In this document: piece by piece, positions 2,526 through 61,892 of the stretch
How positions within the stretch are numbered: the stretch's first letter is position 1
How the letters are laid out: every line of letters starts with the position of its first letter
From: Actinomycetota bacterium
GTDB lineage: Bacteria > Actinomycetota > Acidimicrobiia > Actinomarinales > Actinomarinaceae
NCBI GenBank assembly: GCA_014239265.1
Contig: JAAZZH010000001.1
Coordinates: forward strand, 107,419-171,418
DNA length: 64,000 bases
Reading direction: 5' to 3'
The notes under the pieces: generated by a model
Databases searched by the model: none
Seen by the model: the letters and a program-made list of their open reading frames with translations, nothing else
What the model was told of the DNA's origin: nothing
Position numbers and translations under genes: made by a program

Positions 2526-2550
2526 ACTTAGGCGCAATTTGCGACTAAGT
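2526..2550. terminator. Weak hairpin (ACTTAG / 13-nt loop / CTAAGT) between the convergent HAD and Ddn genes
   Basis: A 6-7 bp stem is visible in the sequence and it overlaps the Ddn stop codon. There is no strong T-run. Confidence 0.2.
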
Positions 2551-4166: not shown

Positions 4167-4382
4167 TTAATATCCACCTTGTCCAATTTTCACATTGGAA
4201 ATAGTTAAAACTCCCTCAATGTCAGTTACCTCAAAATTAATTCTTTGACCCTGCCTTAGCGTCCTGAAAATTGAACCTTTGAGCGAACCTGGTTGTAGAT
4301 AAACTTCCGATTTGTCTGTATCTAAAACTACGATTCCATTACCTGAATTAGGATCATATGATTTAACAACACCTTGAGCCAT
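4167..4382 (-). CDS. Cold-shock-domain-like small protein (divergent CSD)
   Basis: GVVKSYDPNSGNGIVVLD...VYLQP...LRQGQRINFEV follows the CspA pattern but lacks the FGFI and VFVHF aromatic motifs. Confidence 0.5.
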   Translation of the reverse strand: MAQGVVKSYDPNSGNGIVVLDTDKSEVYLQPGSLKGSIFRTLRQGQRINFEVTDIEGVLTISNVKIGQGGY

Positions 4383-4571
4383 TTAAACTTTTGTTACTTT
4401 TCCAGCTTTCAAGCAAGATGTACAAACCTTAACTTTTTTCGTATTCGTGCTATCAGCCACTTTTACTTTTTGGATATTTGCAGACCATTTTTTGCTAGAC
4501 CTTTTGTGAGAAAAAGATACTTGTTTTCCGAACCAAGGTCCTTTTCCACATATTTCACATTTCTTTGCCAT
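4383..4571 (-). CDS. rpmB: 50S ribosomal protein L28
   Basis: MAKKCEICGKGP...SHKRS...VCTSCLKAGKV is the typical L28 sequence. Confidence 0.9.
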   Translation of the reverse strand: MAKKCEICGKGPWFGKQVSFSHKRSSKKWSANIQKVKVADSTNTKKVKVCTSCLKAGKVTKV

Positions 4572-4659
4572 TATTCCCTCTGAATTTACATTATAACTAT
4601 AACTAATCTATTGATTATTAGGTACTTTGAATTAAAAAGTTTTTAGCTATTGTTTTACT

Positions 4660-6756
4660 GTGGTTAAAAGAGATATTAATTATTTATCTAATATAGATAT
4701 ATCCGAAATCAAAGGTTTCGGAGAGAAACGAATAAAATCCTTAAATAAATCAGGTATAAAAAGCATTGTAGATCTTATCAGATTCTATCCCAGGAAACAC
4801 ATAGATCGTTCTGATATATTAACAATCGAGGATGTCAGAAGCTTATTTGAATTTAAAGAAATAACAGTTTTAGTAAAGATTGTAAAAGTTTCTGTTTTCA
4901 CAACCAGAAGTAGATTACGGATAGCAACTCTTTTAGTTTCAGATGAGACAGGAGATGCTAAAGCTAAATGGTTTGGTCCTCAATACATTGAAACTCGATT
5001 TAAAGAAGGTGATACAGTTGCTATTTCTGGTGTGCCCGATGTCAAGAAAACAGGATCTGTCGAATTTAAAAATGCAACTATAGAGAAATATTTGGAATTT
5101 GATGAATTAAACGAAACAGGTGCTCTAATACCTATTTATAAAAAAATAGAAGGACTTTCAAGTACTCTTATTAGAAAAGGTATAAAGCATGCCTTAAAAC
5201 GTACTCCTGAAATCGAAGATTATATTAATGATGAACAATTAACTGATTATGAACTATTAGATAGAACCACAAGTTTAAATGATATCCATTTTCCAGAGGG
5301 GTTATCAAATTATTACAAAGCTAAAAAAAGACTCGCTTTTGATGAGTTTATTTATTTGCAAACTATTTTTAAAAGAAAGAAAAAATCAAATAAACTCATT
5401 ACTGGAAGCGAAAAAATTCAATCAAATAATGAGTTAATGGAGGCTTTCACAGAAAATCTTGATTTTGAATTAACTAGTGCTCAAAAAAGGACAATTAATG
5501 AAATATTGATAGATATGAATAAAAATTCTCCAATGAAAAGGCTTCTTCAGGGGGATGTTGGTTCAGGAAAAACTATTGTTGCTGCATGTGCTGTTTATTC
5601 AGCTAGTAATGCAGGTTTCAAGTCAGCTTTAATGGCACCTACAGAAGTTCTTGCTGAGCAGCACTATAATTCACTAAATCCAATATTAGATAAACATAAT
5701 ATCAAAACATATCTTTTAACTTCTTCAGTTAAGGATAGGTCAGAGATTATAAATCAAATGTCCTCAGCAGAACCAGTATTTTTTATTGGAACTCATGCCT
5801 TGATTCAAGAAAACGTAGTTTTTAATAATTTAGGACTCGCAATAATTGACGAACAACAGAGATTTGGAGTTGATCAAAGAAAGAAGCTTATTGAATCAAG
5901 CAATATTATTCCTCACCAGATTGTAATGACCGCAACCCCTATTCCTAGAACTACTGCACTTGCAGTATATGGAGATTTAGATATTTCTATCATTGATGAG
6001 CTACCTCCGGGTAGGGAAGAGATTGAAAACATACTTCTATCTGGTCTTGAATCAGATAACAATCAAGTTGTAGATTACTGCAAACAACATTTACTAGACA
6101 ATTCGCAAATCTTTGTGGTGTGTCCCTATATAGATGAGAGTGAAAACAAAGATATAAAAGCAGCTGAAAATGTATATGAGCAATATATCAATCTTTTTCC
6201 TGACAGCAATGTAAAAATTTTGCATGGCCGAATGAAATCTGAAGAAAAAGAGTTAATAATGTCACAAATGAATAATGGACAGATTGACATTCTGGTATCT
6301 ACAGTAGTTATTGAAGTAGGGATAGATATCGCTAATGCAACGCTTATGATTATCGAAAGCGCAGAAAGATTTGGATTAAACCAACTCCATCAGCTGAGGG
6401 GAAGAGTTGGGAGAGGAAGTAAAAAGTCACAATGCATCTTTCATATTAGTAATAAGTTAACAATTGATACAATAACAGATGTAGGCAAACAAAGACTCAG
6501 TGCTATAGTCTCAACGAATGATGGTTTTAAACTTTCTGAAATGGACCTACAGATAAGAGGAGAAGGAAAGGTAACTGGCACAGACCAATCTGGATTATCC
6601 GATTTAAAAATTGCTGATCTGAGATATGATTTTGAAATTTTGAATCTTTCTAAACTATTCTTTAATAAGGAAATAACACCAGAGCTCGAGGAGAGGTTAT
6701 ATCTTGAAGCAACACTCCTTTTCCCTAATTTTATGAAAGTTGAGGATACCACTTGA
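4660..6756 (+). CDS. recG: ATP-dependent DNA helicase RecG
   Basis: Walker A is GDVGSGKT and the DEQQRFG motif (DEAH-type DExH box) is present. There is an N-terminal wedge domain. Length is 698 aa. Confidence 0.9.
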   Translation: MVKRDINYLSNIDISEIKGFGEKRIKSLNKSGIKSIVDLIRFYPRKHIDRSDILTIEDVRSLFEFKEITVLVKIVKVSVFTTRSRLRIATLLVSDETGDAKAKWFGPQYIETRFKEGDTVAISGVPDVKKTGSVEFKNATIEKYLEFDELNETGALIPIYKKIEGLSSTLIRKGIKHALKRTPEIEDYINDEQLTDYELLDRTTSLNDIHFPEGLSNYYKAKKRLAFDEFIYLQTIFKRKKKSNKLITGSEKIQSNNELMEAFTENLDFELTSAQKRTINEILIDMNKNSPMKRLLQGDVGSGKTIVAACAVYSASNAGFKSALMAPTEVLAEQHYNSLNPILDKHNIKTYLLTSSVKDRSEIINQMSSAEPVFFIGTHALIQENVVFNNLGLAIIDEQQRFGVDQRKKLIESSNIIPHQIVMTATPIPRTTALAVYGDLDISIIDELPPGREEIENILLSGLESDNNQVVDYCKQHLLDNSQIFVVCPYIDESENKDIKAAENVYEQYINLFPDSNVKILHGRMKSEEKELIMSQMNNGQIDILVSTVVIEVGIDIANATLMIIESAERFGLNQLHQLRGRVGRGSKKSQCIFHISNKLTIDTITDVGKQRLSAIVSTNDGFKLSEMDLQIRGEGKVTGTDQSGLSDLKIADLRYDFEILNLSKLFFNKEITPELEERLYLEATLLFPNFMKVEDTT

Positions 6757-7289
6757 AAATTATCTCAGGAACTCATAAAGGCCAAAATATTTTAACTATT
6801 AATGATTCTAAAACAAGACCGATGATGGGAGTAGCAAGAGAAGGCATCTTTAGCTCACTTCAATTTCAGATTGAGGACTCCATGATTCTTGATTTGTATG
6901 CTGGGTCTGGAAGTATGGGTATAGAAGCTTTGAGTAGAGGAGCTTTGTATGTGACTTTTGTAGATTCCTCTGATAAATGTGTAAATATAATTGAAAAAAA
7001 TCTTACGAAATTTGGCAACAACTACAACATTCAAAAAATGTCAGCTGATAAGTATATTTCAAATGCATACGATAAATACAGGATAATCTTTTATGATCCG
7101 CCCTTTATTTTTGATGATTCTAAGATCTCAGAAGAGATTTCCAATCTAGAAAATTTAATTGAAGAAGATGGGATTATTGTATGCCATAGACATATAAAGG
7201 CAGTTACGTCAATTACCTCTAAAAAGTTGAAAATATATAAAGAAAAACTCTATGGACAAAGTAGAATTTTACTTATAAAGAAATTATGA
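6753..7289 (+). CDS. rsmD: 16S rRNA (guanine966-N2)-methyltransferase RsmD
   Basis: GTHKG...RPMMGVAREGIFSSL...LDLYAGSGSMGIEALSRGA is present. The gene sits between recG and coaD as in Actinobacteria. Confidence 0.85.
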   Translation: MKIISGTHKGQNILTINDSKTRPMMGVAREGIFSSLQFQIEDSMILDLYAGSGSMGIEALSRGALYVTFVDSSDKCVNIIEKNLTKFGNNYNIQKMSADKYISNAYDKYRIIFYDPPFIFDDSKISEEISNLENLIEEDGIIVCHRHIKAVTSITSKKLKIYKEKLYGQSRILLIKKL

Positions 7290-7750
7290 AAGTACTTATA
7301 CCAGGCTCATTTGATCCGCCAACTAATGGACATATTGATGTTATTAAAAGGTGTTCAAAGGTTTTCGACGAAGTTTTAATTGGTGTTGTTGTTAATCCTT
7401 CAAAAAAATCACTATTCACTACCAAAATAAGAGAATTAATGCTCAATGAAATAATATCCGAAACTCCAAATATCTCAACGAAAACCTTTGAAGGTTTGCT
7501 TGTCGATTTTGCAAAAGTTAATAACGTACAAGCGATAGTCAAAGGACTCAGGGCAATGACAGATTTTGACTATGAATTTCAAATGGCTCAAATGAATTCG
7601 AATTTAGCTGATTTTGAAACAATTTTCATTCCAGCATCACCGGAGTATGGATATGTCTCCAGCTCAATGGTTAAAGAAATAAATTCTTACGGTGGGGATA
7701 TATCCAAACTTGTACCACCCAATGTACTAAAAAGGATGGATGATGCCTGA
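7286..7750 (+). CDS. coaD: Phosphopantetheine adenylyltransferase
   Basis: The N-terminus is MKVLIPGSFDPPTNGHIDVI (HxGH nucleotidyltransferase). Confidence 0.9.
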   Translation: MKVLIPGSFDPPTNGHIDVIKRCSKVFDEVLIGVVVNPSKKSLFTTKIRELMLNEIISETPNISTKTFEGLLVDFAKVNNVQAIVKGLRAMTDFDYEFQMAQMNSNLADFETIFIPASPEYGYVSSSMVKEINSYGGDISKLVPPNVLKRMDDA

Positions 7751-8249
7751 AATAGAAGATAATAATTTTAAGGAAATAATAAATGGAGAAGTCAGGGTTG
7801 AATACGTTGATCAACTTGAATTATTGAGAGAAAAGCTTAGCTCGAGTAACTTTCTTAAAAGCCGAACAAGTAACAAAGAGTTGATTTCAATAGTAGAAAA
7901 TCTAATTGATATCTTACCGGTCGAAATGAGAACTGCAAGATGGCTTGTTAGAGAACAAGACACCTTCCTCAACGAAGCAAAAGAAGAATCTCAAAATATA
8001 ATCAATAATGCAAAAAGAGAATCAGAATCATTAATTTCTAATTCCTACGTTCTTCAAGAGGCAGTTGTTGAAGCAAATACATTAATAAAACAAGCTGAAA
8101 AGGAAGCACAGTCCTACAGAATGAAAGTTGAAGATGAAATGGATTCTTTATTTACTCAACTTCAATCAAAAATTGAGCAAGTTAATTCTTATATTGCAAA
8201 TGAAAAGAATTCATTGAGACAACCACGAGAAATCAATAAACCTGAATAG
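7740..8249 (+). CDS. Hypothetical coiled-coil protein
   Basis: A long ORF sits in the conserved slot after coaD. It is rich in E, K and Q and has no recognisable motif. Confidence 0.4.
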   Translation: MMPEIEDNNFKEIINGEVRVEYVDQLELLREKLSSSNFLKSRTSNKELISIVENLIDILPVEMRTARWLVREQDTFLNEAKEESQNIINNAKRESESLISNSYVLQEAVVEANTLIKQAEKEAQSYRMKVEDEMDSLFTQLQSKIEQVNSYIANEKNSLRQPREINKPE

Positions 8250-8251
8250 AT

Positions 8252-8752
8252 ATGTCACAATTAAATACTATTTTCAATTTAGATAAAGTGCTCAATACAA
8301 ATTCAGATTTAAATATTGATGAAAAGGGATTACTAAATATAAAATATTCTGGTACAGCTTCTTCAAATAATTCCAATGCGCTCATGACCGGATTTATAAC
8401 TCGAGATGGAGATTATGTATTGATAGAATTGAGTATATATTTCACCGTTGATAGTGAATGTTCAAGATGCTTAAAAATATCGACTAAAGACAAAAATACA
8501 GTCATAAAAGAGAAAATCTATTTAAAAAGTGAGAATGATTACGACATTGACTTTAAAGAGGAAAGTATAGATGTTCAACCAATAATTTCCGAGAAAATTA
8601 TTGATAGTATGTCCCTTATTAACCTTTGTAAGATTGACTGCAATGGTTTATGTGTAGTTTGTGGAGTCGAGCAAAATTCTACAGTTTGCAAACATGAAGA
8701 AAAAAACTTAAAAGAAAGTCCATTTTCTTCTCTAAGTGAGCTAGATTTGTAG
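8252..8752 (+). CDS. YceD/DUF177-family protein (large-subunit rRNA accumulation protein)
   Basis: The Cys cluster CSRCLK...CNGLCVVCGVEQNSTVCKH lies immediately upstream of rpmF. Confidence 0.7.
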   Translation: MSQLNTIFNLDKVLNTNSDLNIDEKGLLNIKYSGTASSNNSNALMTGFITRDGDYVLIELSIYFTVDSECSRCLKISTKDKNTVIKEKIYLKSENDYDIDFKEESIDVQPIISEKIIDSMSLINLCKIDCNGLCVVCGVEQNSTVCKHEEKNLKESPFSSLSELDL

Positions 8753-8767
8753 TTTGAAAGGAAATTA

Positions 8768-8950
8768 ATGGCCGTACCTAAGAAAAAGATGTCTAAATCT
8801 AGAACTAGAAGAAGGAAAGCAACTCATAAAGTTAGCAAACCTCATTTTATGATAGATCCTGAAACTGGTGTTGCAAAGCAATCACATAGAGTCAACCCTG
8901 TTGATGGAACCTATAATGGACGTCAAGTTAAAGAACCTGAAAATAGCTAA
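8768..8950 (+). CDS. rpmF: 50S ribosomal protein L32
   Basis: The N-terminus is MAVPKKKMSKSRTRRRKATHK. Confidence 0.9.
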   Translation: MAVPKKKMSKSRTRRRKATHKVSKPHFMIDPETGVAKQSHRVNPVDGTYNGRQVKEPENS

Positions 8951-8960
8951 TATATAAATT

Positions 8961-9932
8961 ATGAATACTATTGCTGTTGATGCAATGGGCGGTGATTCTG
9001 CTCCCGAAGAGATAGTGAAGGGTGCAATAAAAGCTAAAAATCTAGGTATAGATATAATTCTTTGTGGCGATAAAAACCTTATAGAACCTTTTTTAAATGA
9101 TTCTAAAATTCCAGTAGTTCATTATCCAGAAGTAATATCTATGGACGATGATCCAGCTAGGGCAATTAGAACCAAAAAAAATTCTTCTATAGTTGGAGCT
9201 ATGCAATTAGTTAAGGATAATAAAGCATCTGCTGTTTTTTCTGCCGGTTCAACTGGTGCAAGTTTAGTAGCAGCAATTTCTGTTTTAGGGAAAATTAAAG
9301 GTGTAATACGCCCAGCAATTGCATCTGTACTTCCATCAATCGATAGAGAGATTGTCTTATTAGATTCTGGTGCCAGTTTAGAGGTAAAGCCAAAAGTTTT
9401 ACTTCAATTCGCAGCAATGGGATCTAAATTTGCTGAGGTACTTTTTAACATACCAGCACCAAGGGTCGGATTATTAAATAATGGTGAAGAGTCTTCAAAA
9501 GGGCGTGATTTAGAAAAGAATACTTATAAACTTTTGAAAAGTTCAAATCTAAACTTTATTGGGAATATTGAAGGTAGAGATTTTGCAACAGATTCAGCAG
9601 ATGTATTTGTTACCGATGGCTTCACAGGAAATATTGTTTTAAAAACCATGGAGGGTACCGCTAGGCTTCAACAAAAGATGATCAAGAAATCATTTATTGA
9701 TAATCTATTTAAACCACTTTTATTACCAGTTAACAAAGCACTTAAGCCCGTCAAAGATAGACTTGATCCAGATAAAACTAACGGCGCTTATTTGCTAGGT
9801 GTTAATGGAGTTGTAACTATTGCACACGGGTCATCATCTGCAGAAGCTGTTATGAATTCCATAATTTTCTCAAACAAGACAGTGGAAAGTGGATTTATTT
9901 CCAAATTTACTGATACAATTTCTGAGTTATGA
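8961..9932 (+). CDS. plsX: Phosphate acyltransferase PlsX
   Basis: IAVDAMGGDSAP and GFTGNIVLK are present. The gene lies between rpmF and rnc. Confidence 0.9.
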   Translation: MNTIAVDAMGGDSAPEEIVKGAIKAKNLGIDIILCGDKNLIEPFLNDSKIPVVHYPEVISMDDDPARAIRTKKNSSIVGAMQLVKDNKASAVFSAGSTGASLVAAISVLGKIKGVIRPAIASVLPSIDREIVLLDSGASLEVKPKVLLQFAAMGSKFAEVLFNIPAPRVGLLNNGEESSKGRDLEKNTYKLLKSSNLNFIGNIEGRDFATDSADVFVTDGFTGNIVLKTMEGTARLQQKMIKKSFIDNLFKPLLLPVNKALKPVKDRLDPDKTNGAYLLGVNGVVTIAHGSSSAEAVMNSIIFSNKTVESGFISKFTDTISEL

Positions 9933-10609
9933 GTCAATCACCTTTGTCCGAATTTGAGAAAATTATTGGGCATACCTTTCAAAATATTAAATTCTTGAAG
10001 ATTGCATTAACTCATAAATCATATATTGATGAAAACCCAACACTTGAATCGAATCAACGTTACGAATTTCTTGGGGATACAATATTAGATTTTGATTTAA
10101 CAATTTATTTATTTAACAAATATCCAAATCTGGATGAAGGTAATCTTACAAAAATCCGATCTAGTGCTGTTAACCAAACTGCATTAGTAGAACTTGGCCA
10201 AAAAATTTCCATTGGTACATTTTTATACTTAAGCAAAGCAGAGGACTCAACTGGGGGTAGATTCAAGAAGTCAATTATAGAAGATGCCGTAGAGGCATTG
10301 ATCGCAGCACTTTTCTTTGACGGGGGTCTAGATACTGTTAATAATTTTGTATCAAAATTTATTTATCCAAATATAAAAGAACTTTCAGAAGATCCTGGTT
10401 CTAAAGATTACAAAACTCGATTACAAGAATATTATGCAAAAAAAGGACAAAAAGTTAATTACGAAGATAAATCTGCTGGTCCTGATCACAATAAAGAATT
10501 TTTATCCGAAGTTATTTTAAACGACAAAGTCATTGGTGTTGGAAAAGGAAAGTCAAAAAAAAGTGCACAACAGCATGCTGCAAAACAAGCTTTGAGTACT
10601 GTTAGCTAA
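9929..10609 (+). CDS. rnc: Ribonuclease III
   Basis: The YEFLGDTILDF signature and a C-terminal dsRBD (KEFLSEVIL...GKSKKSAQQHAAKQAL) are present. Confidence 0.9.
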   Translation: MSQSPLSEFEKIIGHTFQNIKFLKIALTHKSYIDENPTLESNQRYEFLGDTILDFDLTIYLFNKYPNLDEGNLTKIRSSAVNQTALVELGQKISIGTFLYLSKAEDSTGGRFKKSIIEDAVEALIAALFFDGGLDTVNNFVSKFIYPNIKELSEDPGSKDYKTRLQEYYAKKGQKVNYEDKSAGPDHNKEFLSEVILNDKVIGVGKGKSKKSAQQHAAKQALSTVS

Positions 10610-10639
10610 CCTAAAAAATAATTGTTATAATTTCCATTT

Positions 10640-11575
10640 ATGGATGGTTTCACAGTCGTATTAACAAGAAATAACATCGATGAATCTTTTCATGATATTG
10701 ATATTGTTAACAATAATTCTTTAGAAAGTTTTGATTACTTTCCAAGATCAGCAATAAAGCCATTTCAACTTATACCGTTAGTTTTTGAAATGCTAAAAAG
10801 GGGATTAGAAATAGATCTAAGAGAGATAGCACTTTTCTGCGCATCCCACTCAGGAGAAGCCTTACATACCACTAGGGTCAAAGATACTGCAGAAAAATAC
10901 TCTTTAAATTATGAAGACATATTTTGTGAAAAACAAATCCCATTTCATGATGAAACGTATAAGAAACTCCTTATTGAAGATGAACCAATTACAAAACTCC
11001 ATAATAATTGCTCCGGAAAGCACGTAGGTATGCTTCTTTTGTGCAATCTTCTTGATTTGGATATATTAAATTATCAAGAGTTGGACCACCCACTTCAACA
11101 AAAGATCGATTCATTTTATAAAGACTTATTTTCCTTAGATAATATTATTTATGGAGTTGATGGATGTGGTCTTCCCGCACCATATATAAATACAAAAATA
11201 TTCTTATCCAGTGTTAATAAACTTAATGATTCAGATATTTATAGAAAATCGTGGATGACTATTTTTAATTCATTTATTGCTCACCCTGATCATACAGCTG
11301 GAACTAACCGAGTTGATACGATTCTTATGCAGAAGAGTTCAAAAGATGTTCTTATTAAAGCAGGTGCTGAAGGATCTATGTTCTTTACAGATTTAAATAC
11401 CAGCACAGTTTTAGTATGTAAAGACGGATCTAAGAGGGGAGTTGAAATTGCATCTATGTATTTTGGAAAAAAACAAGGATACATTGATGAAAACTATTAC
11501 TCAAACTTTCTTAAATCGTTCACTCATAACAATCAAAATACAAAAGTTGCCGATATAAAAATTATAGAAAAATAG
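10640..11575 (+). CDS. Asparaginase II-family protein (PF06089-like)
   Basis: The conserved CSGKHVGMLLLC motif and DGCGLPAPY are present. The gene occupies the slot where fpg sits in Mycobacterium. Confidence 0.55.
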   Translation: MDGFTVVLTRNNIDESFHDIDIVNNNSLESFDYFPRSAIKPFQLIPLVFEMLKRGLEIDLREIALFCASHSGEALHTTRVKDTAEKYSLNYEDIFCEKQIPFHDETYKKLLIEDEPITKLHNNCSGKHVGMLLLCNLLDLDILNYQELDHPLQQKIDSFYKDLFSLDNIIYGVDGCGLPAPYINTKIFLSSVNKLNDSDIYRKSWMTIFNSFIAHPDHTAGTNRVDTILMQKSSKDVLIKAGAEGSMFFTDLNTSTVLVCKDGSKRGVEIASMYFGKKQGYIDENYYSNFLKSFTHNNQNTKVADIKIIEK

Positions 11576-11633
11576 GTTAAATACCAAAATTTTGGTGATT
11601 CTTTAGTATAATTATTACAACAACAGGGTAACA

Positions 11634-14294
11634 ATGTATTTAAAATCGATAGTCGTGAATGGCTTTAAGTCATTCGCTGAAAAAGTTAATATTGAACTTT
11701 CCAATAAGGTTAATGTTGTCGTAGGTCCAAACGGTTCAGGCAAATCGAACGTAGTAGACGCAATTTCTTGGGTATTAGGAACTCAAAGTCCAGGAACTTT
11801 ACGTACAAATAAAATGGAAGACGTTATATTTGCAGGAACTGAAAAACTTGCAGAAAAGGGATTTGCAGAAGTATACCTAAACTTTGTTGTTGACCCTGAA
11901 AAATTTAACGGATCAGAAGAAATCTCAATTGGTAGAAAACTTTTTAGAGATGGTGCTTCTGAGTATTTTATGAATGGTTTAAATTGCAGACTTCTTGATA
12001 TACAAGAATTCTTAAGTGATTTAGGTATAGGTAAACAGCAGCATACAATTATTTCACAAGGTCAAATTGCAGAAATATTAAATTCTAAACCTGAAGATCA
12101 TAGGGTTACAATTGAGGAAGCAGCAGGTATATTACCGTTTAAATTAAAAAAAGACAAAGCTTTAAGACGAATCGAATCTGGTGATAAGGAAATTAAAAGA
12201 GCTAAAGACGTCCTTAGAGAAATTAATAAACAACTTAAGCCATTAAAAATTCAAGCAGAACAAGCACAGGCACATGAAACACTCAGTAAATCTTTGCTTG
12301 AAAACAAAACAAATATCAATATTCTTAAATATAAAATATTCAAGGAGAAGGAAACTGGGATAAGCAGTGAGTTACAAACAACAATTAAAGATTTAGAAGA
12401 AGTTAATAAATCTACGGATGAAGCAAAGTCTCTAAAAACAAACCTCACTTCAGAATTGGGTCAAGGAGTATCAGTAAGCTCACTTTTTAAAGATTATTCA
12501 AACAAACTGTCTACAAAATCTGAACAAGTAAAATCAGTTGCACAAATAGCTACTGAAAGATTAGACAATCTTGAGAGGGAATCTATTCGTCAGGAAAAAC
12601 GATTAAGTGATTTACAAAATAAAGTTTTAACCAACACTCTAACGATAAACGATCTTTCAAATAAATTAATTTCAAAGAAAGACAATTTAACTAATTTAAA
12701 TCAAAACCTTGAATATCTTAATGTCCAACTTAATGAGAATAATAAAAACCAGTCTGCGTCGCTTGAGGTGAACGAAGCAATACTTGAGAAAGACTTAGAT
12801 TACCTAAAAAGAATTATTTCTAAACTTGAAGTAAACATAACTGATCGTGAAAACGAATACCAAAAATGGGATAAAGATAAAATTGTTAGTAGTGAGTTAT
12901 TAGATAGCCACTCATCTCTAATTTCAAAAAAAATCATACTCAAAAGTTCATTCTCAAAAGTCCGTAAAAATATTTCTTCTATTTTTGATAGAGAGCTAGA
13001 AGTAACGAGGAATAATCTTGATAAAATCAAATTAGAATACAAAAATAACGTTGATATTTTAAATTCAAAAGTCGAACAACAAGAAAGTATTTCTAACAAT
13101 TCCTCCTATAAAGATGAGTTAAAGAATCAGGAGGTAAGTTTACGTCAAAACTTAAAGCAACTTGAAGATGAAATTACATCTATATCTAATCAGTTAGTGT
13201 CAGCGGCTGAGCAAATAAAATTCCTAACTAATGAAAACTCTGATTTACAACTTACTATTGACGAAATACATTACGCTCCTGATCATAATTATAAAACTGA
13301 GCTTGAAAATATTATTGATAAATCCACTACTCTTATCAGTATTCTAAATAAATCTTCAGAATCTATGTTGCTACAAGCTAATGTCTACGAACAAAAGCAC
13401 GGTAATAAAAACATAAAAATTACTGAATTAGACAACCAGATAGAAAATCTTAACAAAAACTATTTATCACTTAATGAACAAAAAGGAAATCTTTCTATCA
13501 AAAAAGCAGAATACTCTTCTGAAAAAGCCCATTATTATTCAACACTTATAAACATGTATGGTGTTGAAACAGAAGTTATTGACTCTTTTATTTCCTCACA
13601 GTACAGTCAAAATGAAATAGAAAATGAAATAAGGACTATAGAGCAAAAATTAGAAAATATTGGTGTTGTTAATTACCTTGCAAAAACAGATTATGAACAA
13701 TTAGATACCCGTCACCAAGAGATTTCTAATTCCATAGAAGATCTAACTTCCTCAAAAAAAGAATTACTCGTTCATATTAAAGAAATTGAGGATGAAATAG
13801 AATTTAGAATAGATTCTTCATTCAACTCTATTTCACTACACTTTACAGAAATATTTGAACAGCTATTCCCAGGAGGGAAGGGCTCTCTTGAATTAACCAA
13901 TAAAGAGAACTTGCTAGAAACTGGTATTGAAATAAATGTACAACCTAAAGGTAAAAAGGTTAAAAAATTAAGTCTTCTTTCTGGTGGCGAAAGGTCTCTA
14001 GCGGCTATTGCTTTTCTTTTTGCTATTTTTAAATCTTTTCCAAGTCCATTTTACATTCTTGATGAGGTCGAAGCAGCCTTAGATGATGCCAACTTACATA
14101 GAATGATTAATTTATTAAATTATGTAAAAGATGATGCACAGTTCATTATTGTTACCCATCAACAGCAGACAATGCATGCTGGTGATATTCTATATGGTGT
14201 AACAATGGAACCAGGCTCAGGTTCTCGTATATTTATTAAAACAAAATCAGAATTTGAAAGCCTAATTGCTAACGAGGTAAATAAGGATGAATGA
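11634..14294 (+). CDS. smc: Chromosome segregation protein SMC, short form (886 aa, no recognisable hinge)
   Basis: The N-terminus is KSIVVNGFKSFAEK...VVGPNGSGKSNVVDAISWVLG. The C-terminus carries LSGGERSLAAIAFLFAIFK...FYILDEVEAALD. The middle is coiled-coil only. Confidence 0.8.
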   Translation: MYLKSIVVNGFKSFAEKVNIELSNKVNVVVGPNGSGKSNVVDAISWVLGTQSPGTLRTNKMEDVIFAGTEKLAEKGFAEVYLNFVVDPEKFNGSEEISIGRKLFRDGASEYFMNGLNCRLLDIQEFLSDLGIGKQQHTIISQGQIAEILNSKPEDHRVTIEEAAGILPFKLKKDKALRRIESGDKEIKRAKDVLREINKQLKPLKIQAEQAQAHETLSKSLLENKTNINILKYKIFKEKETGISSELQTTIKDLEEVNKSTDEAKSLKTNLTSELGQGVSVSSLFKDYSNKLSTKSEQVKSVAQIATERLDNLERESIRQEKRLSDLQNKVLTNTLTINDLSNKLISKKDNLTNLNQNLEYLNVQLNENNKNQSASLEVNEAILEKDLDYLKRIISKLEVNITDRENEYQKWDKDKIVSSELLDSHSSLISKKIILKSSFSKVRKNISSIFDRELEVTRNNLDKIKLEYKNNVDILNSKVEQQESISNNSSYKDELKNQEVSLRQNLKQLEDEITSISNQLVSAAEQIKFLTNENSDLQLTIDEIHYAPDHNYKTELENIIDKSTTLISILNKSSESMLLQANVYEQKHGNKNIKITELDNQIENLNKNYLSLNEQKGNLSIKKAEYSSEKAHYYSTLINMYGVETEVIDSFISSQYSQNEIENEIRTIEQKLENIGVVNYLAKTDYEQLDTRHQEISNSIEDLTSSKKELLVHIKEIEDEIEFRIDSSFNSISLHFTEIFEQLFPGGKGSLELTNKENLLETGIEINVQPKGKKVKKLSLLSGGERSLAAIAFLFAIFKSFPSPFYILDEVEAALDDANLHRMINLLNYVKDDAQFIIVTHQQQTMHAGDILYGVTMEPGSGSRIFIKTKSEFESLIANEVNKDE

Positions 14295-20549: not shown

Positions 20550-21554
20550 TTAATTACTGTTGACCAGTATATTTACTAAATCAACAATACGGTTTGAGTA
20601 TCCCCACTCATTGTCATACCAGCAAACAACTTTTATATGATTTCCACTTAATAGCTGAGTGGATGAAGCATCGTAAATACTTGAATGAGGATTTTGTAAA
20701 ATATCAGTAGATACTAAGGGGATAGAGGAGTATTCAAGGATACCTTTCAATTCATTATCAGCAGCTTTCTTAACAGCATCATTTACCTCTTGTACAGTTA
20801 CTTCTTCATTAAGCTCTACTACCAAATCAACAACGCTGCCATCTGGGACAGGTACCCTCATTGCCATACCATCAAGTTTTCCATTTAACTCTGGCAACAC
20901 CATGCCAACGGCTTTTGCGGCACCAGTAGAGGTAGGAATTATATTTTGTGTAGCACTTCTCCCTCTTCTAAAATCTTTATGTGTAGTTTCAGCGAGAGCT
21001 TGGTCATTGGTATAGGCATGAATAGTAGTCATTAAGCCTGACTTAATCCCAAAATTATCATTTAAGACTTTGGCAATAGGTGCTAAGCAGTTTGTTGTAC
21101 ATGAGGCATTAGATATTAATTTTGAATCCTCATTAAGATCTCCATCGTTTACACCTAATACAACTGTTGCATCAATTTCATCTTTTGGCGGTACTGTTAA
21201 AACTACCTTTTTAGCTCCTGCCTCAATATGTTTTTCAAGAGATTTTCTATCTGCAAAGATACCGGTTGATTCTATAACAATATCTATGTCTAGTTCTTTC
21301 CAGGGTAATTCTGCAGGATTTGCAACAGAGACTAATTTTATTTCTCTGTCATCAATTTTTAATATATCTTCATTAAGAGTTACATCGTGATTCAATACTC
21401 CCATTACAGAGTCATGTTTTAATAAATAGGAAAGATTTTCATAATTCCCCAGATCATTTATTGCAACTACATTTAAATCAGAGTCACTTTCAATAATTAT
21501 TCTAAGAATCGATCTACCAATTCTGCCAAAACCGTTAATTGCAATATTACTCAT
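20550..21554 (-). CDS. gap: Glyceraldehyde-3-phosphate dehydrogenase, type I (canonical active site)
   Basis: The sequence includes INGFGRIGR, the active-site NASCTTNCLAP, TTIHAYT and WYDNEWGYS. Confidence 0.9.
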   Translation of the reverse strand: MSNIAINGFGRIGRSILRIIIESDSDLNVVAINDLGNYENLSYLLKHDSVMGVLNHDVTLNEDILKIDDREIKLVSVANPAELPWKELDIDIVIESTGIFADRKSLEKHIEAGAKKVVLTVPPKDEIDATVVLGVNDGDLNEDSKLISNASCTTNCLAPIAKVLNDNFGIKSGLMTTIHAYTNDQALAETTHKDFRRGRSATQNIIPTSTGAAKAVGMVLPELNGKLDGMAMRVPVPDGSVVDLVVELNEEVTVQEVNDAVKKAADNELKGILEYSSIPLVSTDILQNPHSSIYDASSTQLLSGNHIKVVCWYDNEWGYSNRIVDLVNILVNSN

Positions 21555-22560
21555 TGACTCTACTTTCTGAAAGTTTGGTTATTGTGTCGATTATTCTTGC
21601 ACTATATCCCCATCCATTATCAAACCAGACAAGGATTTTAATTTTATTGTTATTTATATCCATGGTTGCTAAACCATCAATAATTCCAGAATGTGAATTA
21701 CCAACAACATCTGAGGAGACAATTGGATCAAAAGTTATATCAAGAACTTTATTGTATGGAAGATGCTTAATAGCCTCTTTAATCGTCTGATTGATTTCTT
21801 CAGATGTAGCTTGTGTTTTAATATCAATTGTAAGGTCGACAGTACTTCCATCTGGTACAGGTACTGTCATAGAGGATGATGCAACCTTATCTTTCATAAA
21901 AGGTAAAACAGTTTCAATAACTTCTGAAGATTTAGTGATAGCAGGAATGATATTTTCTCCTGCAGCTCTGTTTAATCTGAAACCTTCACCGGCAACGTCA
22001 GCCAATCTATTTGAATTTGAATAACCGTGAACAGTAGTAAGAAATGCTCTCTCTACACCATATTTTTCATGAATAATTTTGAGCAGGGGAGCTACAGCAT
22101 TAGCTGTGTTTGATCCAAGAGATATGATGTCATTGTTAAAATCAACCTTTGTATCATTAGCACCAGGAACATAAATTTGTATATCACTCCCAGATTTAGG
22201 TGTCGATGCAATCAATACTCTTTTACAACCTTTTGCAATATGTTCATTGACCTCCTCAAGGTCTTGTTTTCTTCCAGTGGATACTATTAATATGTCGGTC
22301 TCAAGATCCTGCCAGGATGCTTCTGAAGCATCTTTCCAGTCATTAAAGACTATATTTTTACCATTTATTTTAAAACCAGTATCTGTTGATTCTATATCCG
22401 CATCGAGTTTTCCATATATTGTGTCGTATTTAAGCAAATAAAGAAGATTCTCTTTATCGGCTATATCGGAAATAGAGACAATATTTATTAAATCATTATT
22501 AAGAGTTTGTCTTAATAGGTCTCTTCCTATTCTTCCAAACCCTAAAATTGAAATGTTCAT
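21547..22560 (-). CDS. GAPDH-like paralog lacking both active-site cysteines (SNTANA in place of SCTTNC)
   Basis: It has ILGFGRIGR...SLGSNTANAVAPLL...TTVHGYS...WFDNGWGYS. The Cys-less motif was verified by reverse-translating nucleotides 22105-22125. Confidence 0.75.
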   Translation of the reverse strand: MNISILGFGRIGRDLLRQTLNNDLINIVSISDIADKENLLYLLKYDTIYGKLDADIESTDTGFKINGKNIVFNDWKDASEASWQDLETDILIVSTGRKQDLEEVNEHIAKGCKRVLIASTPKSGSDIQIYVPGANDTKVDFNNDIISLGSNTANAVAPLLKIIHEKYGVERAFLTTVHGYSNSNRLADVAGEGFRLNRAAGENIIPAITKSSEVIETVLPFMKDKVASSSMTVPVPDGSTVDLTIDIKTQATSEEINQTIKEAIKHLPYNKVLDITFDPIVSSDVVGNSHSGIIDGLATMDINNNKIKILVWFDNGWGYSARIIDTITKLSESRVNE

Positions 22561-22633
22561 AAATGCCTCGTATAGTTAAGTCTTAATCATAAAGGATTGG
22601 TTGTATAAATTATGTCGATTTTATTAAATATTT

Positions 22634-23761
22634 GTGAACTCTAGAGTATTGGTAATGATGTTATACGAACAAATAGATACCCTTCTCTTTGGAGAAAAGC
22701 CAACCTCGGAACTGTCTGCCGAGGCTTTTGATGTTAAATTATCAAGTTTCGGAAAAAATATTACATACAGTCCTAAGGTTTTTATACCCCTAACTACTTT
22801 ATGTCAAGATTCATGTGCGTATTGTACATTTGTTAAAACCCCAAAAGATGGAGGTACTTTCCTTAACTATGAAGAAGTAGATGCAATTGCATCTGTTGGT
22901 GTATCTGCAGGGTGTTACGAAGCATTATTTACACTTGGAGATAAACCAGAGGTTAAATGGGATTTTGCACTTGAACAATTAAAAAGTTTTGGTTTTTCTT
23001 CAACTCATGAGTATCTAACTGACAATATGAAAAAAATTCATCAGAAATATAAAATATTTCCTCATGCAAATCCAGGATTAATGACTAAAGATGAAATTAT
23101 TAACTACAAACAATATTCTCCCTCTGGAGGTCTTATGCTAGAGAGTTTTTCTCCTAAATTACTGGAAAAAGGTCGAGCACACTATGGTGCTAAAACAAAA
23201 AATATAAAATATCGAATTGAAACATTAAATAATGCTGAAAAAATTAAATACCCAATGACAACAGGTCTTCTTATTGGGATAACTGAGAGTAAAGATGAAT
23301 TAATAAATGATATTGTAGAACTTATTCAATTATGTAAAAAAAATACTGCAATACAGGAAATAATTTTACAAAACTTTAGAGCTAAAAAAAATACGCTTAT
23401 GAGAAATAATGCCGAAATAATAAATGATCTCTTCTTAAGGATTATCGCAATCACAAGATTATTGTTACCATCCCAGATTTCATTACAGGTCCCACCTAAC
23501 CTATTACCTGATGTTGAAATGTACTTAACTAGTGGTATTAATGACTTAGGAGGAATATCACCTAAGACTATTGATTGGGTTAATCCTGATCACTTGTGGC
23601 CAGATCTAAATAATTTAGAAAAAATAACAAGTTCAAGTGGACAATCTCTTAAAAAAAGACTTCCTGTTTATCCAAGTTTTATAAATAATGAATGGTTAAG
23701 CCCACCAGTTTTTGAAAAAGTCAGTAATGTTATTGATAACAATGGTTATCCGAAACAATGA
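22634..23761 (+). CDS. cofG: FO synthase subunit 1 (7,8-didemethyl-8-hydroxy-5-deazariboflavin synthase) CofG
   Basis: The radical SAM motif sits in the CofG context ITYSPKVFIPLTTLCQDSCAYCTFV. The start is GTG 22634 or ATG 22655. Confidence 0.75.
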   Translation: MNSRVLVMMLYEQIDTLLFGEKPTSELSAEAFDVKLSSFGKNITYSPKVFIPLTTLCQDSCAYCTFVKTPKDGGTFLNYEEVDAIASVGVSAGCYEALFTLGDKPEVKWDFALEQLKSFGFSSTHEYLTDNMKKIHQKYKIFPHANPGLMTKDEIINYKQYSPSGGLMLESFSPKLLEKGRAHYGAKTKNIKYRIETLNNAEKIKYPMTTGLLIGITESKDELINDIVELIQLCKKNTAIQEIILQNFRAKKNTLMRNNAEIINDLFLRIIAITRLLLPSQISLQVPPNLLPDVEMYLTSGINDLGGISPKTIDWVNPDHLWPDLNNLEKITSSSGQSLKKRLPVYPSFINNEWLSPPVFEKVSNVIDNNGYPKQ

Positions 23762-25611
23762 TAGAAAATAAAAATATATCCTATTTAAGAGTCCGTCCTT
23801 GCGATAGTGATAATGAGATATATTTGAATTCAAGAGCTAAAGAAGGTACTTCTGCCTTTACTTTGAAACCAGGACTTGATATCAATTATCAAAATCTATT
23901 AATAAATGGCTTTCAAACTATTTCATCAGATATTGTTTCTAATTCTTCAGCATGGTTCGTTGATGATGAACTGATAAACACAAAGATAGAACAAAATTCA
24001 AAAAGATTAATTTATCGATACAAGGGAATTAAAGAAAATGCTTTAGAAGTGATTTCAAGATACAAACCAGCGATAGTACTTATAGATAACCTCGAAGATA
24101 TGGAATTTTTCATGTCTCTTAATGGAACAACTAATTTTATTATCTCTAAGTATGTTAACTCTATAGATGAGGCTATAGAGGCTGTAAAAAGGGGAGTCGA
24201 TGACTTATTTCTGCGTGATTGGAGCAAAAATCAAATTCTAGAACTTCAAAGTAATTTATCAATTCCTTTGTACGAGAGAACAATACTTTCACCACTGCTA
24301 GAAGTTAATGAAGCCAGGAACTTATTAGAAAAAACTGAATTTACAAATTTCCTTCAAACGAGAAATGTTCGAGGTTACAAAAGAGAAACTACTTCATGGT
24401 ATCCAGGCAGCGGAGAGTCTATACCTAATCTTTTCAATTTCACTTCAGAAACATTATCTGATTATAAAACCTCGAATTTAGATAATATTTTAAAAAATTT
24501 TCAAAAAACAGAACATCTTAATGAAAAAGATCTCCTTGATTTATTTAAAACATCTGGAAAGTACATCAATCAAATTGCTGAACTTGCGAATGAGTTAACA
24601 AAGAATGTTCACGGTAACAAAGTTACATTTGTTAAAAACCGAAACATCAATTACACAAATCAGTGTTATTACAAGTGTGGTTTCTGTGGCTTTTCAAAAG
24701 GTCCCCAAAGTTTAGATCTTAAAGAAAAACCATATACATTAACACCTGATGAAGTCCTTAATAGAACAATAGAAGCACATAAAAATGGCGCCTCAGAAGT
24801 TTGCTTACAAGGGGGGATTCATCCAAGTTATACAGGAGATTTCTATATTGATTTAGTTAAAAAAATAAAGAGTGAATTACCTGACATGCACATACATGGG
24901 TTTACACCACTGGAAATATGGCAAGGTGCAAATACTGTAAATAAGTCAATAGAAAACTATTTACAAGAACTTAAAGAAGCAGGGTTGGGAACTCTACCTG
25001 GCACTGCAGCTGAAATACTGGATGACAGAATAAGGAAGTACTTGTGCGATGATAAAATTACTTCATCTCAATGGGGTTACGTTATGGAAGTTGCTCATTC
25101 ATTAGGTATTAAATCTACTGCAACAATTATGTTCGGCCACATAGATGATCTAGAGTCTTGGGTAAATCACTTTCAATTAATTAAAAATATTCAATTAAAA
25201 ACAAATGGATTTACAGAAATTGTCCCTCTTCCTTTTGTTCACATGGGTTCTCCAATATTTTTACAAGGTAAGAGTATGCCAGGTCCTGCTTGGGATGAAA
25301 TAGTGCTGATGCATTCATTAGCGAGAATATACTTTTACAACACAATAGATAATATTCAAGCAAGCTGGGTAAAACTTGGTCATGATGGTGCAAAAGTGCT
25401 TCTTGAGTCTGGTGTTAATGATCTCGGAGGAACGTTAATCAATGAAAACATCAGTAGGGCATCAGGAGCAAATCACGGTCAGGAGACTACTGACATGGAA
25501 TTTATCAGTCTAATTAATGATGCAGGAAAAATTCCATATTTAAGAAACACGTTATATACATCTTTTAAGAATCTTGAAAGTGTAAGTTTTGAAAATGTTA
25601 TCAAAATATAA
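23758..25611 (+). CDS. cofH: FO synthase subunit 2 CofH with a ~250-aa N-terminal extension of unknown function
   Basis: The CofH radical SAM motif is VTFVKNRNINYTNQCYYKCGFCGFSKG, at residue ~300. There is an ATGA overlap with cofG. The frame is open through the extension. Confidence 0.7.
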   Translation: MIENKNISYLRVRPCDSDNEIYLNSRAKEGTSAFTLKPGLDINYQNLLINGFQTISSDIVSNSSAWFVDDELINTKIEQNSKRLIYRYKGIKENALEVISRYKPAIVLIDNLEDMEFFMSLNGTTNFIISKYVNSIDEAIEAVKRGVDDLFLRDWSKNQILELQSNLSIPLYERTILSPLLEVNEARNLLEKTEFTNFLQTRNVRGYKRETTSWYPGSGESIPNLFNFTSETLSDYKTSNLDNILKNFQKTEHLNEKDLLDLFKTSGKYINQIAELANELTKNVHGNKVTFVKNRNINYTNQCYYKCGFCGFSKGPQSLDLKEKPYTLTPDEVLNRTIEAHKNGASEVCLQGGIHPSYTGDFYIDLVKKIKSELPDMHIHGFTPLEIWQGANTVNKSIENYLQELKEAGLGTLPGTAAEILDDRIRKYLCDDKITSSQWGYVMEVAHSLGIKSTATIMFGHIDDLESWVNHFQLIKNIQLKTNGFTEIVPLPFVHMGSPIFLQGKSMPGPAWDEIVLMHSLARIYFYNTIDNIQASWVKLGHDGAKVLLESGVNDLGGTLINENISRASGANHGQETTDMEFISLINDAGKIPYLRNTLYTSFKNLESVSFENVIKI

Positions 25612-26233
25612 TATAGTCACATTATTTCCAAAACTCATAGACGAGTGGTCAGAAACTGGAATAATCTCTAAAGCACATGAAAGTTCCCTTTTTGAACTAT
25701 CTACAACAAATCTAAGAGACTACGGTCTAGGTGATTACCACCAGGTTGATGACGCACCATATGGTGGTGGACCAGGTATGGTACTTATGCCGGAACCTCT
25801 GGATAACGCAATATCAGCTAATAAATTGGATATAAATATATTTTTAACTCCATCGGGGGACCAGTTGAATGAAAATCTTATAACCGAATTGCATACATTT
25901 CAATCAGCAAACATCATTTGCGGCAGATATGAAGGATTTGATCAAAGGATTATTGATATGCATGCTGATTATCAAATATCAATTGGTCAAACTGTTGTTT
26001 CAGGTGGGGAAGTCCCTGCACTGTTCTTACTTGAAGCTCTGATAAGAAAAATACCTGGTGCACTAGGTAACGCCGAATCTCTACTTACTGAATCATTTAC
26101 AGATGGAAAACTCGACCATCCCGTGTACACGAGACCTGAAGTCTATAAAGATAAAGAGGTTCCATCCGTATTACTATCGGGAAATCACAAAAAAATTGAA
26201 GAATGGAAAAAGAATAATTTAACGGACATATAA
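25589..26233 (+). CDS. trmD: tRNA (guanine37-N1)-methyltransferase
   Basis: It has IVTLFP...YHQVDDAPYGGGPGMVL...ICGRYEGFDQR. Confidence 0.9.
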   Translation: MKMLSKYNIVTLFPKLIDEWSETGIISKAHESSLFELSTTNLRDYGLGDYHQVDDAPYGGGPGMVLMPEPLDNAISANKLDINIFLTPSGDQLNENLITELHTFQSANIICGRYEGFDQRIIDMHADYQISIGQTVVSGGEVPALFLLEALIRKIPGALGNAESLLTESFTDGKLDHPVYTRPEVYKDKEVPSVLLSGNHKKIEEWKKNNLTDI

Positions 26234-26270
26234 AGCTAAATAACTTATATAATCCTCTACTGGAGAAGAT

Positions 26271-26615
26271 ATGAATTTAATTGAAGAAATAGAACAATCA
26301 AAGTTAAAAGAAGAATTACCTTCTTATAAAGCTGGTGATTCTGTAAAAGTTAATGTAAAAGTTTCCGAAGGTAATCGTGAAAGAATCCAAACTTTTGAAG
26401 GCGTAATAATTGCAACTAATGGTGTTGCTCTCAATAAAACTATTACAGTACGCAAACTTTCATTTGGTGTAGGCGTGGAAAGAATATTCCCCGTACATGC
26501 TCCAATAGTTGACTCTATAGAGGTTATTAGAAAAGGTAAAGTTCGTAGGTCTAAACTTTACTATCTAAGAGATCGAGTAGGAAAAGCTGCCAAAATCAAA
26601 GAAGATCGTTCATAA
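26271..26615 (+). CDS. rplS: 50S ribosomal protein L19
   Basis: It has [12 protein letters not shown]...[10 protein letters not shown]...[13 protein letters not shown]. Confidence 0.9.
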
Positions 26616-60776: not shown

Positions 60777-60778
60777 TA

Positions 60779-61805: not shown

Positions 61806-61892
61806 GTCATAAGGATTCTAATATCTGGCGTATATTTGGTAAAAGTTTTTATTATTGGCCTAAATGGTTAGTAAAGAGCATAACTTTTCTAC

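Follow-up and report, generated by a model that had tools for sequence, protein, structure and literature searches.

The window analysed here is a stretch of 64,000 nucleotides from an Actinomycetota bacterium of the family Actinomarinaceae (class Acidimicrobiia, order Actinomarinales; GenBank assembly GCA_014239265.1, contig JAAZZH010000001.1, positions 107,419 to 171,418 of the forward strand). Our interest lies in two adjacent genes, cofG and cofH, whose predicted products are the two radical S-adenosylmethionine (SAM) subunits of FO synthase, the entry point to cofactor F420 and to the antenna pigment of photolyases that use 8-hydroxy-5-deazaflavin (8-HDF), as FO is also called. According to reviews, Actinobacteria carry the two activities as a single fused protein, FbiC (PMC8498797), and the fusion is said to have originated within this phylum. 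A preliminary description of the window, made from the letters alone, had likewise taken FbiC as the actinobacterial norm and had reported separate cofG and cofH genes with the cluster motifs CQDSCAYC and CYYKCGFC and an ATGA overlap; all of these are present in the sequence (Table 1). Comparison with the locus of another Actinomarina species (L007) indicates that cofG likely starts at the ATG at 22655, which gives a protein of 368 residues.

Table 1 Features of the window, with positions counted from its first nucleotide (nt, nucleotides; aa, amino acids; ORF, open reading frame)
Feature	Positions	Strand	Basis or remark
cofG	22634-23761	+	maximal ORF of 375 aa from GTG; TIGR03550 and Radical_SAM Pfam
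cofH, long form	23758-25611	+	617 aa from ATG; N-terminal barrel, CofG-tail-like segment and linker, CofH catalytic domain
ATGA overlap of cofG stop and cofH start	23758-23761	+	4 nt; junction caATGAtag
CofG [4Fe-4S]/SAM cluster motif CQDSCAYC, aa 57-64	22802-22825	+	read from sequence
CofH [4Fe-4S]/SAM cluster motif CYYKCGFC, aa 303-310	24664-24687	+	read from sequence
Predicted small beta/alpha (TIM-like) barrel, CofH aa 1-170	23758-24267	+	AlphaFold2, Foldseek; no family assignment
CofG-tail-like segment, aa 171-215 ('LYERTILSP...RNVRGYKRE'), then FbiC-type linker (W-x-PG); CofH aa 171-255	24268-24522	+	BLASTP, hhalign
CofH catalytic radical-SAM domain, aa 256-605, including CofH_C region	24523-25572	+	TIGR03551, Pfam
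trmD and rplS	25589-26615	+	directly 3' of cofH; trmD start overlaps cofH 3' end
Promoter-like site TTGAAA-17-TATAGT	22548-22576	+	in the 73-bp divergent spacer 5' of cofG; weak consensus match, 10/12 positions
LLM-class F420-dependent oxidoreductase, Rv3520c family	49918-50958	+	TIGR03559, 413.7 bits (cutoff 335); Pfam Bac_luciferase
Ddn-family deazaflavin-dependent reductase	2545-2994	-	TIGR00026, 94 bits (cutoff 46); PF04075, 123 bits
Second Ddn-like frame	61799-62269	+	PF04075, 81 bits; no ATG, GTG or TTG ahead of domain
Photolyase-like ORF, 397 aa	2964-4157	-	overlaps the Ddn-family gene at 2545-2994 (-) by 31 nt

Both proteins were compared with curated family models. CofG scores 361 bits against TIGR03550 (cutoff 213.35) and 342.6 bits against NF004884 (cutoff 209), and the Radical_SAM family PF04055 aligns with its residues 51-225 and matches CofH as well. 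CofH scores 465.3 bits against TIGR03551 (cutoff 374.1) over residues 255-602 and contains the CofH/MqnC C-terminal region PF19288. The CX3CX2C motifs are intact in both proteins. The models for MqnC and MqnE of the menaquinone (futalosine) pathway both fail on CofH, TIGR03699 (MqnC) with 309.7 bits against a cutoff of 428.1 and TIGR03700 (MqnE) with 290.8 bits against 434.55, and on CofG they reach only 59.5 and 36.6 bits, respectively. The preliminary description had called the pair true FO-synthase subunits and had named a grouping with MqnC or MqnE as fatal to that assignment; the assignment holds, and both models remain below cutoff on both proteins. Chance is no credible explanation for two open reading frames of 375 and 617 codons in DNA of 32% guanine plus cytosine (GC), both of which pass an equivalog-level model. 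Judged from sequence, the pair consists of FO-synthase subunits of the CofG and CofH families and has every defining feature that could be tested; public annotation already labels such proteins CofG and CofH. The predicted function is that of an ordinary FO synthase, a variant of a known enzyme and not a new system. As two polypeptides, the pair falls outside FbiC as that protein is defined, and it also falls outside MqnC/MqnE.

The scores of the FbiC model point to a closer relationship. NF006687 (FbiC) is the top NCBIfam model for both proteins, CofG aligning with its positions 55-409 and CofH with 469-839 of 849. The scores of 370 bits for CofG and 490 bits for CofH stand below the cutoff of 1018, and a stop codon splits the two reading frames. 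The model for a free CofH subunit, NF005609 (PRK07360), gives CofH 398.5 bits against a cutoff of 426 and fails too; we take this model to be built mostly on cyanobacterial sequences.

CofH exceeds canonical CofH by about 240 residues, and the second part of this N-terminal extension resembles the middle of FbiC. A BLASTP comparison of long CofH with fused FbiC yields a single collinear high-scoring segment pair that opens at residue 171, opposite FbiC residue ~385, and extends past the 'WAPG' linker as far as the CofH domain and on within it. Residue ~385 lies within the C-terminal tail of the CofG domain (residues 57-422 of that FbiC), and the alignment starts with 'LYERTILSP' here and with 'LVERTA.P' in high-GC relatives. 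Matches of long CofH to FbiC genomes by tblastn likewise begin at residues ~155-200. In hhalign, the whole extension scores 35.0 against the CofG profile, compared with 18.2 +/- 3.3 (maximum 27.1) for 40 block-shuffled controls, and the signal is located in residues 171-215 (score 31.6, P 4.6e-5), opposite the last ~37 CofG positions. Long CofH shares with FbiC, then, a CofG-domain tail and a linker ahead of the CofH domain. The free CofG of the same genomes keeps a tail of its own ('L..RLPVYP...W......V....D.DGY'). The tail is present twice, once in each protein, which is not what a clean fission of FbiC at the linker would yield.

The first part of the extension, residues 1-170, is predicted at high confidence to fold as a small barrel. 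No Pfam family matches residues 1-240 at E values up to 10, and a PDB sequence search with the same segment returned only CheY (E 0.26). A receiver-like domain was considered for this segment and dropped, since the beta/alpha pattern predicted by AlphaFold2 repeats eight times and the Foldseek matches were TIM barrels only. Modelled alone from an alignment of 74 sequences, the extension is compact with alternating beta and alpha elements (predicted local distance difference test score, pLDDT, 86.8; predicted template modelling score, pTM, 0.81). The full-length CofH model (pLDDT 85.4, pTM 0.89) suggests that the barrel is packed in a fixed position on the catalytic domain. That catalytic domain superposes on MqnE 6xig with TMt 0.85; the PDB holds no two-barrel template for the full-length model, known structures matching the catalytic domain alone. 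Two sequence searches of the PDB matched no CofG or CofH structure, and no structure of CofG, CofH or FbiC existed as of a 2021 review (PMC8498797). The top Foldseek matches of the extension are all TIM barrels, namely GGGPS/PcrB, IGPS, HisA, ThiE and designed barrels (E 1e-5 to 1e-3, template modelling (TM) score 0.34-0.53).

The extension has no conserved cysteine, no cysteine column rising above 18%, and therefore the barrel cannot hold a radical-SAM cluster. Fifteen residues (R13, G30, S130, G146, D149, L152, R153, W155, E173, R174, R209, W214, G217, S230 and D235) are invariant across the 74 sequences, which are only ~25% identical to the query in this region, and the domain is therefore under constraint. 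A search of 1.84 billion representative proteins found 49 relatives of the extension. Almost all of those that could be judged are N-terminal pieces of long CofH, and neither a stand-alone version nor one on another confirmed protein family was found. The same search returned P0158 (308 aa), in which the long-CofH linker motif 'FFRYLNTRNVRGFRREKTDWYPGSGKDIP' is flanked by unrelated sequence including the ligase-like 'VKWDGAPA'; this entry probably stems from a chimeric assembly or an error in gene calling.

The long form of CofH is widespread among relatives of the window's source. Database searches found more than 100 relatives of 617 residues at 92-99% identity, some of them named 'Candidatus Actin...', and a genome labelled 'uncultured Candidatus Actinomarina sp.' has the same locus at 73% identity for the CofH core and 64% for CofG. 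A cluster search, for which the query was a high-GC fragment reached via the CofH N-terminal extension, gave more than 100 protein clusters of 612-634 residues that cover the extension fully; most of the named ones bear the label Acidimicrobiia or Actinomycetota. A high-GC contig of 4.16 Mb carries cofG (380 aa) and cofH (624 aa, with a 4-nt overlap) followed by trmD, rplS and lepB, the same order as in the window. The cofH gene stands directly 5' of trmD-rplS in the window and in four further loci (L001, L005, L007 and L013), with rpsP upstream in several. Since this cofG-cofH-trmD-rplS synteny recurs in high-GC Acidimicrobiia, the sequence comparison indicates that the split is old, vertically inherited and common to Acidimicrobiia-type genomes, and not a recent acquisition by Actinomarina.

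Outside Acidimicrobiia-type genomes the extension was encountered once, the chimeric-looking P0158 aside, on plasmid NZ_CP064358.1 of Miltoncostaea oceani SCSIO 61214, a cultured isolate of the Thermoleophilia. This plasmid (L086, 46.6 kb; positions 4204-13220 of the record) carries a complete F420 gene set, in which cofG and a 616-aa cofH with an ATGA overlap stand beside cofE, cofC and cofD. The long CofH of the plasmid falls within the Acidimicrobiia-type clade, and its CofG does not. The long cofH of M. oceani is likely a transferred copy, and the arrangement suggests that the F420 gene set of the plasmid is a mobile, possibly mosaic, cassette. Its host also offers a cultivable source of long CofH.

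To place the pair among FO synthases, GTDB species genomes were scanned with the query motifs NRNINYTN and TAAEILDD, which gave 80 loci among the 600 stretches listed. With the window and 11 sequences fetched separately (plasmid records included), 92 sequences were classified; 69 of them are fused FbiC, from Proteobacteria, Rubrobacteraceae, Gaiellaceae, Solirubrobacterales, Chloroflexi, Acidobacteria and Mycobacteriales, and 10 are split with the extension. A neighbour-joining (NJ) tree computed from 373 columns of the CofH core, with 100 bootstraps and with MqnC and MqnE as outgroups, unites all long CofH in one clade with bootstrap 100. This clade lies inside an 84-taxon clade (support 100), the remainder of which is almost entirely fused FbiC. 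Other Actinomycetota FbiC form its sister group with weak support (46), and successively further out stand the split CofH of Thermomicrobium and Leisingera, the classical FbiC of Rhodococcus and Nonomuraea and the archaeal CofH. The archaeal sequences fall outside the bacterial clade (support 100), and the longest branches of the tree separate MqnC/MqnE from CofH. The corresponding CofG tree recovers a clade of Actinomarina and Acidimicrobiia-type sequences with bootstrap 80. Because CofH nests in FbiC, the FbiC model scores best and the tail and linker are kept, we infer from sequence that the split pair descends from a fused FbiC-type enzyme and has been split secondarily.

Taken together, these results lead us to read the locus as a two-subunit FO synthase that is vertically inherited, derives from fused FbiC and carries a barrel that is probably a non-catalytic scaffold; for this reading as a whole we estimate a probability of about 0.78. 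The simplest history would be a duplication of fbiC or of its 5' part, after which the CofH half would have disappeared from the upstream copy and the CofG half would have degenerated in the downstream one. The product would be a free CofG and a chain of barrel, tail, linker and CofH, with the barrel where a CofG barrel would sit. Characterised CofH cleaves tyrosine and joins the p-hydroxybenzyl radical to 5-amino-6-ribitylamino-uracil, and CofG cyclises the product to FO (PMC8498797). By analogy, a SAM-derived radical in the long CofH would cleave tyrosine, the p-hydroxybenzyl fragment would be added to 5-amino-6-ribitylamino-uracil, and the separate CofG would cyclise this intermediate to FO. 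The FO formed may then feed F420 synthesis for the LLM oxidoreductase and Ddn-family enzymes of the window, and possibly a photolyase antenna. The retained barrel would act as a scaffold on CofH and may dock CofG. The more specific proposal that it is a degenerated CofG radical-SAM barrel, a pseudo-enzyme that docks the free CofG beside CofH and so rebuilds FbiC as a heteromer, is a tentative one to which we give rather less than even odds. Less likely than a scaffold is the variant in which the barrel acts on the ribityl-uracil precursor, as a new module for ligand binding or catalysis.

Several observations weigh against this interpretation. Sequence comparison detects no similarity of residues 1-170 to either CofG or CofH, the hhalign scores of 15-17 against CofG being at the null level, and a derivation from the CofG barrel would be drawn from position and fold class alone. 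The Foldseek matches are generic, with TM scores below 0.5 to natural proteins. The idea that the whole extension can be recognised by sequence as a degenerate CofG barrel was rejected, as hhalign with residues 1-160 or 1-172 and an enlarged alignment, in local and global mode, remained at the shuffle null. A likeness of 'GAxDL' to the 'G(I/C)NDxGG' motif of CofG and CofH was set aside as having no independent significance. The backbone of the CofG tree is unresolved (supports 15-49) and does not show where the free cofG came from, and the CofG of Miltoncostaea stands apart from Acidimicrobiia-type CofG. Both trees are NJ trees with a simple distance and contain no cyanobacterial sequences, and the comparison set was chosen through two motifs derived from the query, among the 600 stretches listed. 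No cyanobacterial comparator appeared among the plasmid tblastn matches or in that motif-based scan. Finally, cofC, cofD and cofE are not among the window's open reading frames of at least 110 aa (judged by eye and partial hidden Markov model scans; the full Actinomarina genome was not searched).

The strongest competing explanation is a simple fission of FbiC after which CofH captured an unrelated small TIM barrel, with a ligand-binding or catalytic role towards the ribityl-uracil precursor or another anionic ligand. The lack of detectable similarity of residues 1-170 to CofG or CofH is what such a capture would leave behind. The nearest natural folds, GGGPS/PcrB, IGPS, HisA and ThiE, are phosphate-binding barrels, and the invariant residues are rich in Arg, Asp and Glu and lie on or just past predicted beta-strands, as in barrel active sites. 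Against this, the CofG-tail-like segment follows the barrel just as the tail follows the CofG barrel, and it occurs in both genes, unlike the outcome of a clean fission. The extension turned up only at the N-terminus of CofH, its 49 matches being mostly long-CofH fragments, and the Foldseek likeness is generic, designed TIM barrels scoring as high as natural ones. We regard a capture as unlikely, and prefer the duplication of fbiC followed by degeneration of one CofG half.

The enzymes encoded elsewhere in the window bear on what the FO would be used for. The preliminary description had pointed to deazaflavin- or F420-dependent enzymes in the window, and this is borne out by an LLM-class oxidoreductase and by Ddn-family matches. 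Judged from sequence, the oxidoreductase and the Ddn-family protein at 2545-2994 are likely consumers of the cofactor. The count of two Ddn paralogs in the preliminary description stands for the intact gene at 2545-2994 and is doubtful for the frame at 61799-62269, which has no canonical start before the domain. This second frame begins where a 65-aa open reading frame with a hydrophobic N-terminus (61608-61805) ends, one frame off and shortly past a TTTTTTAAAAAA run (about 61764-61775); possible causes are a frameshift introduced during sequencing or assembly, decay to a pseudogene, initiation at a non-canonical start and a programmed -1 shift. The photolyase of the preliminary description is present as a weak, partial match in which the domain order looks atypical and seems to be inverted. 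Its residues ~34-203 match the flavin adenine dinucleotide (FAD)-binding helical domain (best PDB match the Anacystis 8-HDF photolyase, E 8e-12; FAD_binding_7, 28.6 bits), and a C-x2-C-x5-C motif (KLCQQCNLQYKCP) follows that match. The C-terminal ~120 residues resemble the N-terminal alpha/beta antenna domain of photolyases, and the HMMER alignment there is not significant. The protein may be a circularly permuted or otherwise atypical member of the cryptochrome/photolyase family, co-transcribed with the deazaflavin-dependent reductase.

An FO made solely as a light-harvesting antenna for photolyase, with no F420, would fit with this photolyase-like gene lying 18 kb away, its FAD domain being closest to 8-HDF-type photolyases, and with the failure to find cofC, cofD and cofE in the window. 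The LLM oxidoreductase, however, passes the cutoff of the F420-specific model TIGR03559, Ddn-family genes are present, and the photolyase-like protein scores only 45.7 bits against the 8-HDF photolyase cutoff of 884.6. Moreover, the F420 biosynthesis pathway, several F420-dependent oxidoreductases and an Fpo-like complex have been reported for Ca. Actinomarinales (Lopez-Perez et al. 2020, PMC7771536), and F420-dependent enzymes had been noted earlier (Ghai et al. 2013); the supplements of PMC7771536 contain no gene-level entries for cofC, cofD or cofE. An antenna-only role is very improbable, and the preferred reading, in which FO also feeds F420 synthesis, is retained. The same publication bears on the preliminary description, which had thought a deazaflavin metabolism unexpected in a streamlined lineage; it was already on record for this order.

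The preliminary description had further likened the split to that of cyanobacteria and archaea and had proposed that the genes may have been acquired. Horizontal import of a split cofG/cofH pair from such a source draws on a superficial likeness to the archaeal and cyanobacterial state (PMC8498797), and cyanobacterial sequences are not in the tree. Against it, the archaeal proteins are the most distant FO-synthase sequences from those of the window (30% identity for CofH, 34% for CofG) and branch outside the bacterial clade. Both window proteins score highest on FbiC, the free-subunit model NF005609 stays below its cutoff, and CofH keeps an FbiC-type tail and linker. The same pair in the same position before trmD-rplS is common to high-GC Acidimicrobiia, and the GC content of cofG and cofH (about 32-34%) equals that of their flanks in a window of 30-37% throughout. 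Neither the likeness nor the acquisition is supported by these data, and we consider import a most improbable origin. The phylogeny against FbiC and archaeal sequences that the preliminary description had proposed is clear for CofH, which sits among FbiC with bootstrap 100, and leaves CofG without a resolved backbone. That the genes are menaquinone-pathway MqnC/MqnE, their nearest paralogues (MqnE being the sole solved homologue), is hardly credible, since their models stay below cutoffs on CofH and give CofG only 37-60 bits, both proteins score above the cutoffs of the equivalog-domain models for CofG and CofH, respectively, and the longest branches of the tree divide these outgroups from CofH.

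Expression signals and neighbouring genes were surveyed as well. The overlap of the cofG stop with the cofH start implies, at the level of sequence, translational coupling of the pair. Of the 8 related loci listed with a long cofH, 6 likewise show an ATGA or GTGA overlap at this junction; in L007 the overlap is 11 nt, and in L003 the genes do not overlap. No terminator-like site was found between cofH and trmD, and cofG-cofH probably form one transcription unit with trmD-rplS. Promoter and terminator sites in the scan are not enriched over shuffled sequence, so that the promoter-like site upstream of cofG is suggestive only. An Rfam scan of the window gave no riboswitch or other RNA. Between rimM and cofG, on the opposite strand (20550-22560), lie two GAPDH-like paralogues of 334 and 337 aa, arranged in tandem with an overlap and 37% identical to one another, alongside a RidA-family gene and a peptidase C26/GATase gene. 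This insert breaks the usual rpsP-rimM-trmD-rplS cluster, and the same genes are present in the other Actinomarina species (L007).

Two further neighbourhoods adjoin the F420-related genes. At 49918-52801 (+), the LLM oxidoreductase gene is followed, after an overlapping stop and start, by a radical-SAM gene and a small flavin reductase gene. The radical-SAM protein has relatives in the ArsL and CUAEP/CCAEP-tail (seleno)protein families, although its 379 bits do not reach the cutoff of 500, and the three genes may form an operon. Next to the second Ddn-like frame, at 60015-61516 (-), stand a BtpA/SgcQ-family gene (231 bits) and a gene whose product resembles TIGR03084, a metal-binding protein of the DinB/mycothiol type, with 150 bits where the cutoff is 248. 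BtpA is usually discussed in connection with photosystem I, which the organism of the window lacks.

The known metabolism of Actinomarina is unchanged by these results, as its use of F420 had already been published. Two points are new relative to the literature consulted, being mentioned neither in PMC8498797 nor in the Actinomarinales papers examined. The first is that the enzyme of Acidimicrobiia-type genomes, as sampled in 10 loci and more than 100 protein clusters, derives from FbiC and was split secondarily; the second is the N-terminal barrel of its CofH, which is conserved and unannotated. An actinobacterial lineage that is large and abundant, and includes one of the most abundant marine actinobacteria, would thus depart from the fused state. 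The fusion remnant and the extra barrel on CofH refine the evolutionary story of fbiC and flag an unannotated domain family. If the proposed history is true, the locus would be a natural case of duplication, degeneration and complementation in a fused bifunctional radical-SAM enzyme. A pseudo-enzyme scaffold, if true, would bear on the need for physical coupling of the two active sites of FO synthase, and long CofH provides a natural construct for testing whether the radical-SAM halves need to associate.

Comparison with known systems serves to define the variant. MqnE (PDB 6XI9/6XIG), the nearest solved structure, superposes on the CofH catalytic model (TMt 0.84-0.85) and shares with it the radical-SAM TIM barrel and the CofH/MqnC C-terminal region; it differs in belonging to the menaquinone pathway, in having a curated model that CofH does not pass and in lacking the extra N-terminal barrel. 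The split CofG/CofH of archaea (Natrinema, Haloterrigena), Thermomicrobium roseum and Leisingera are also two subunits, often adjacent with an ATGA or GTGA overlap, and presumably perform the same chemistry. Their CofH, however, is about 420-450 aa long and has neither the N-terminal barrel nor the CofG-tail segment; the archaeal proteins are 30-34% identical and branch outside, and those of Thermomicrobium and Leisingera also fall outside the clade that contains long CofH. The long cofH of M. oceani shows the same architecture with a homologous extension but is plasmid-borne, beside cofE/cofC/cofD instead of trmD-rplS. The closest counterpart is FbiC (NF006687/PRK09234) of Actinomycetota, Proteobacteria, Chloroflexi and Acidobacteria, which has the same domain order, and whose representatives in Rubrobacteraceae, Gaiellaceae, Ktedonobacteria and others share 47-62% identity with the CofH core; the end of its CofG domain and its 'WAPG' linker are kept in long CofH. 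FbiC is one polypeptide, whereas here there are two, the catalytic CofG coming from a separate, putatively translationally coupled gene and its barrel position in the CofH chain being taken by a predicted 170-aa barrel without conserved cysteines.

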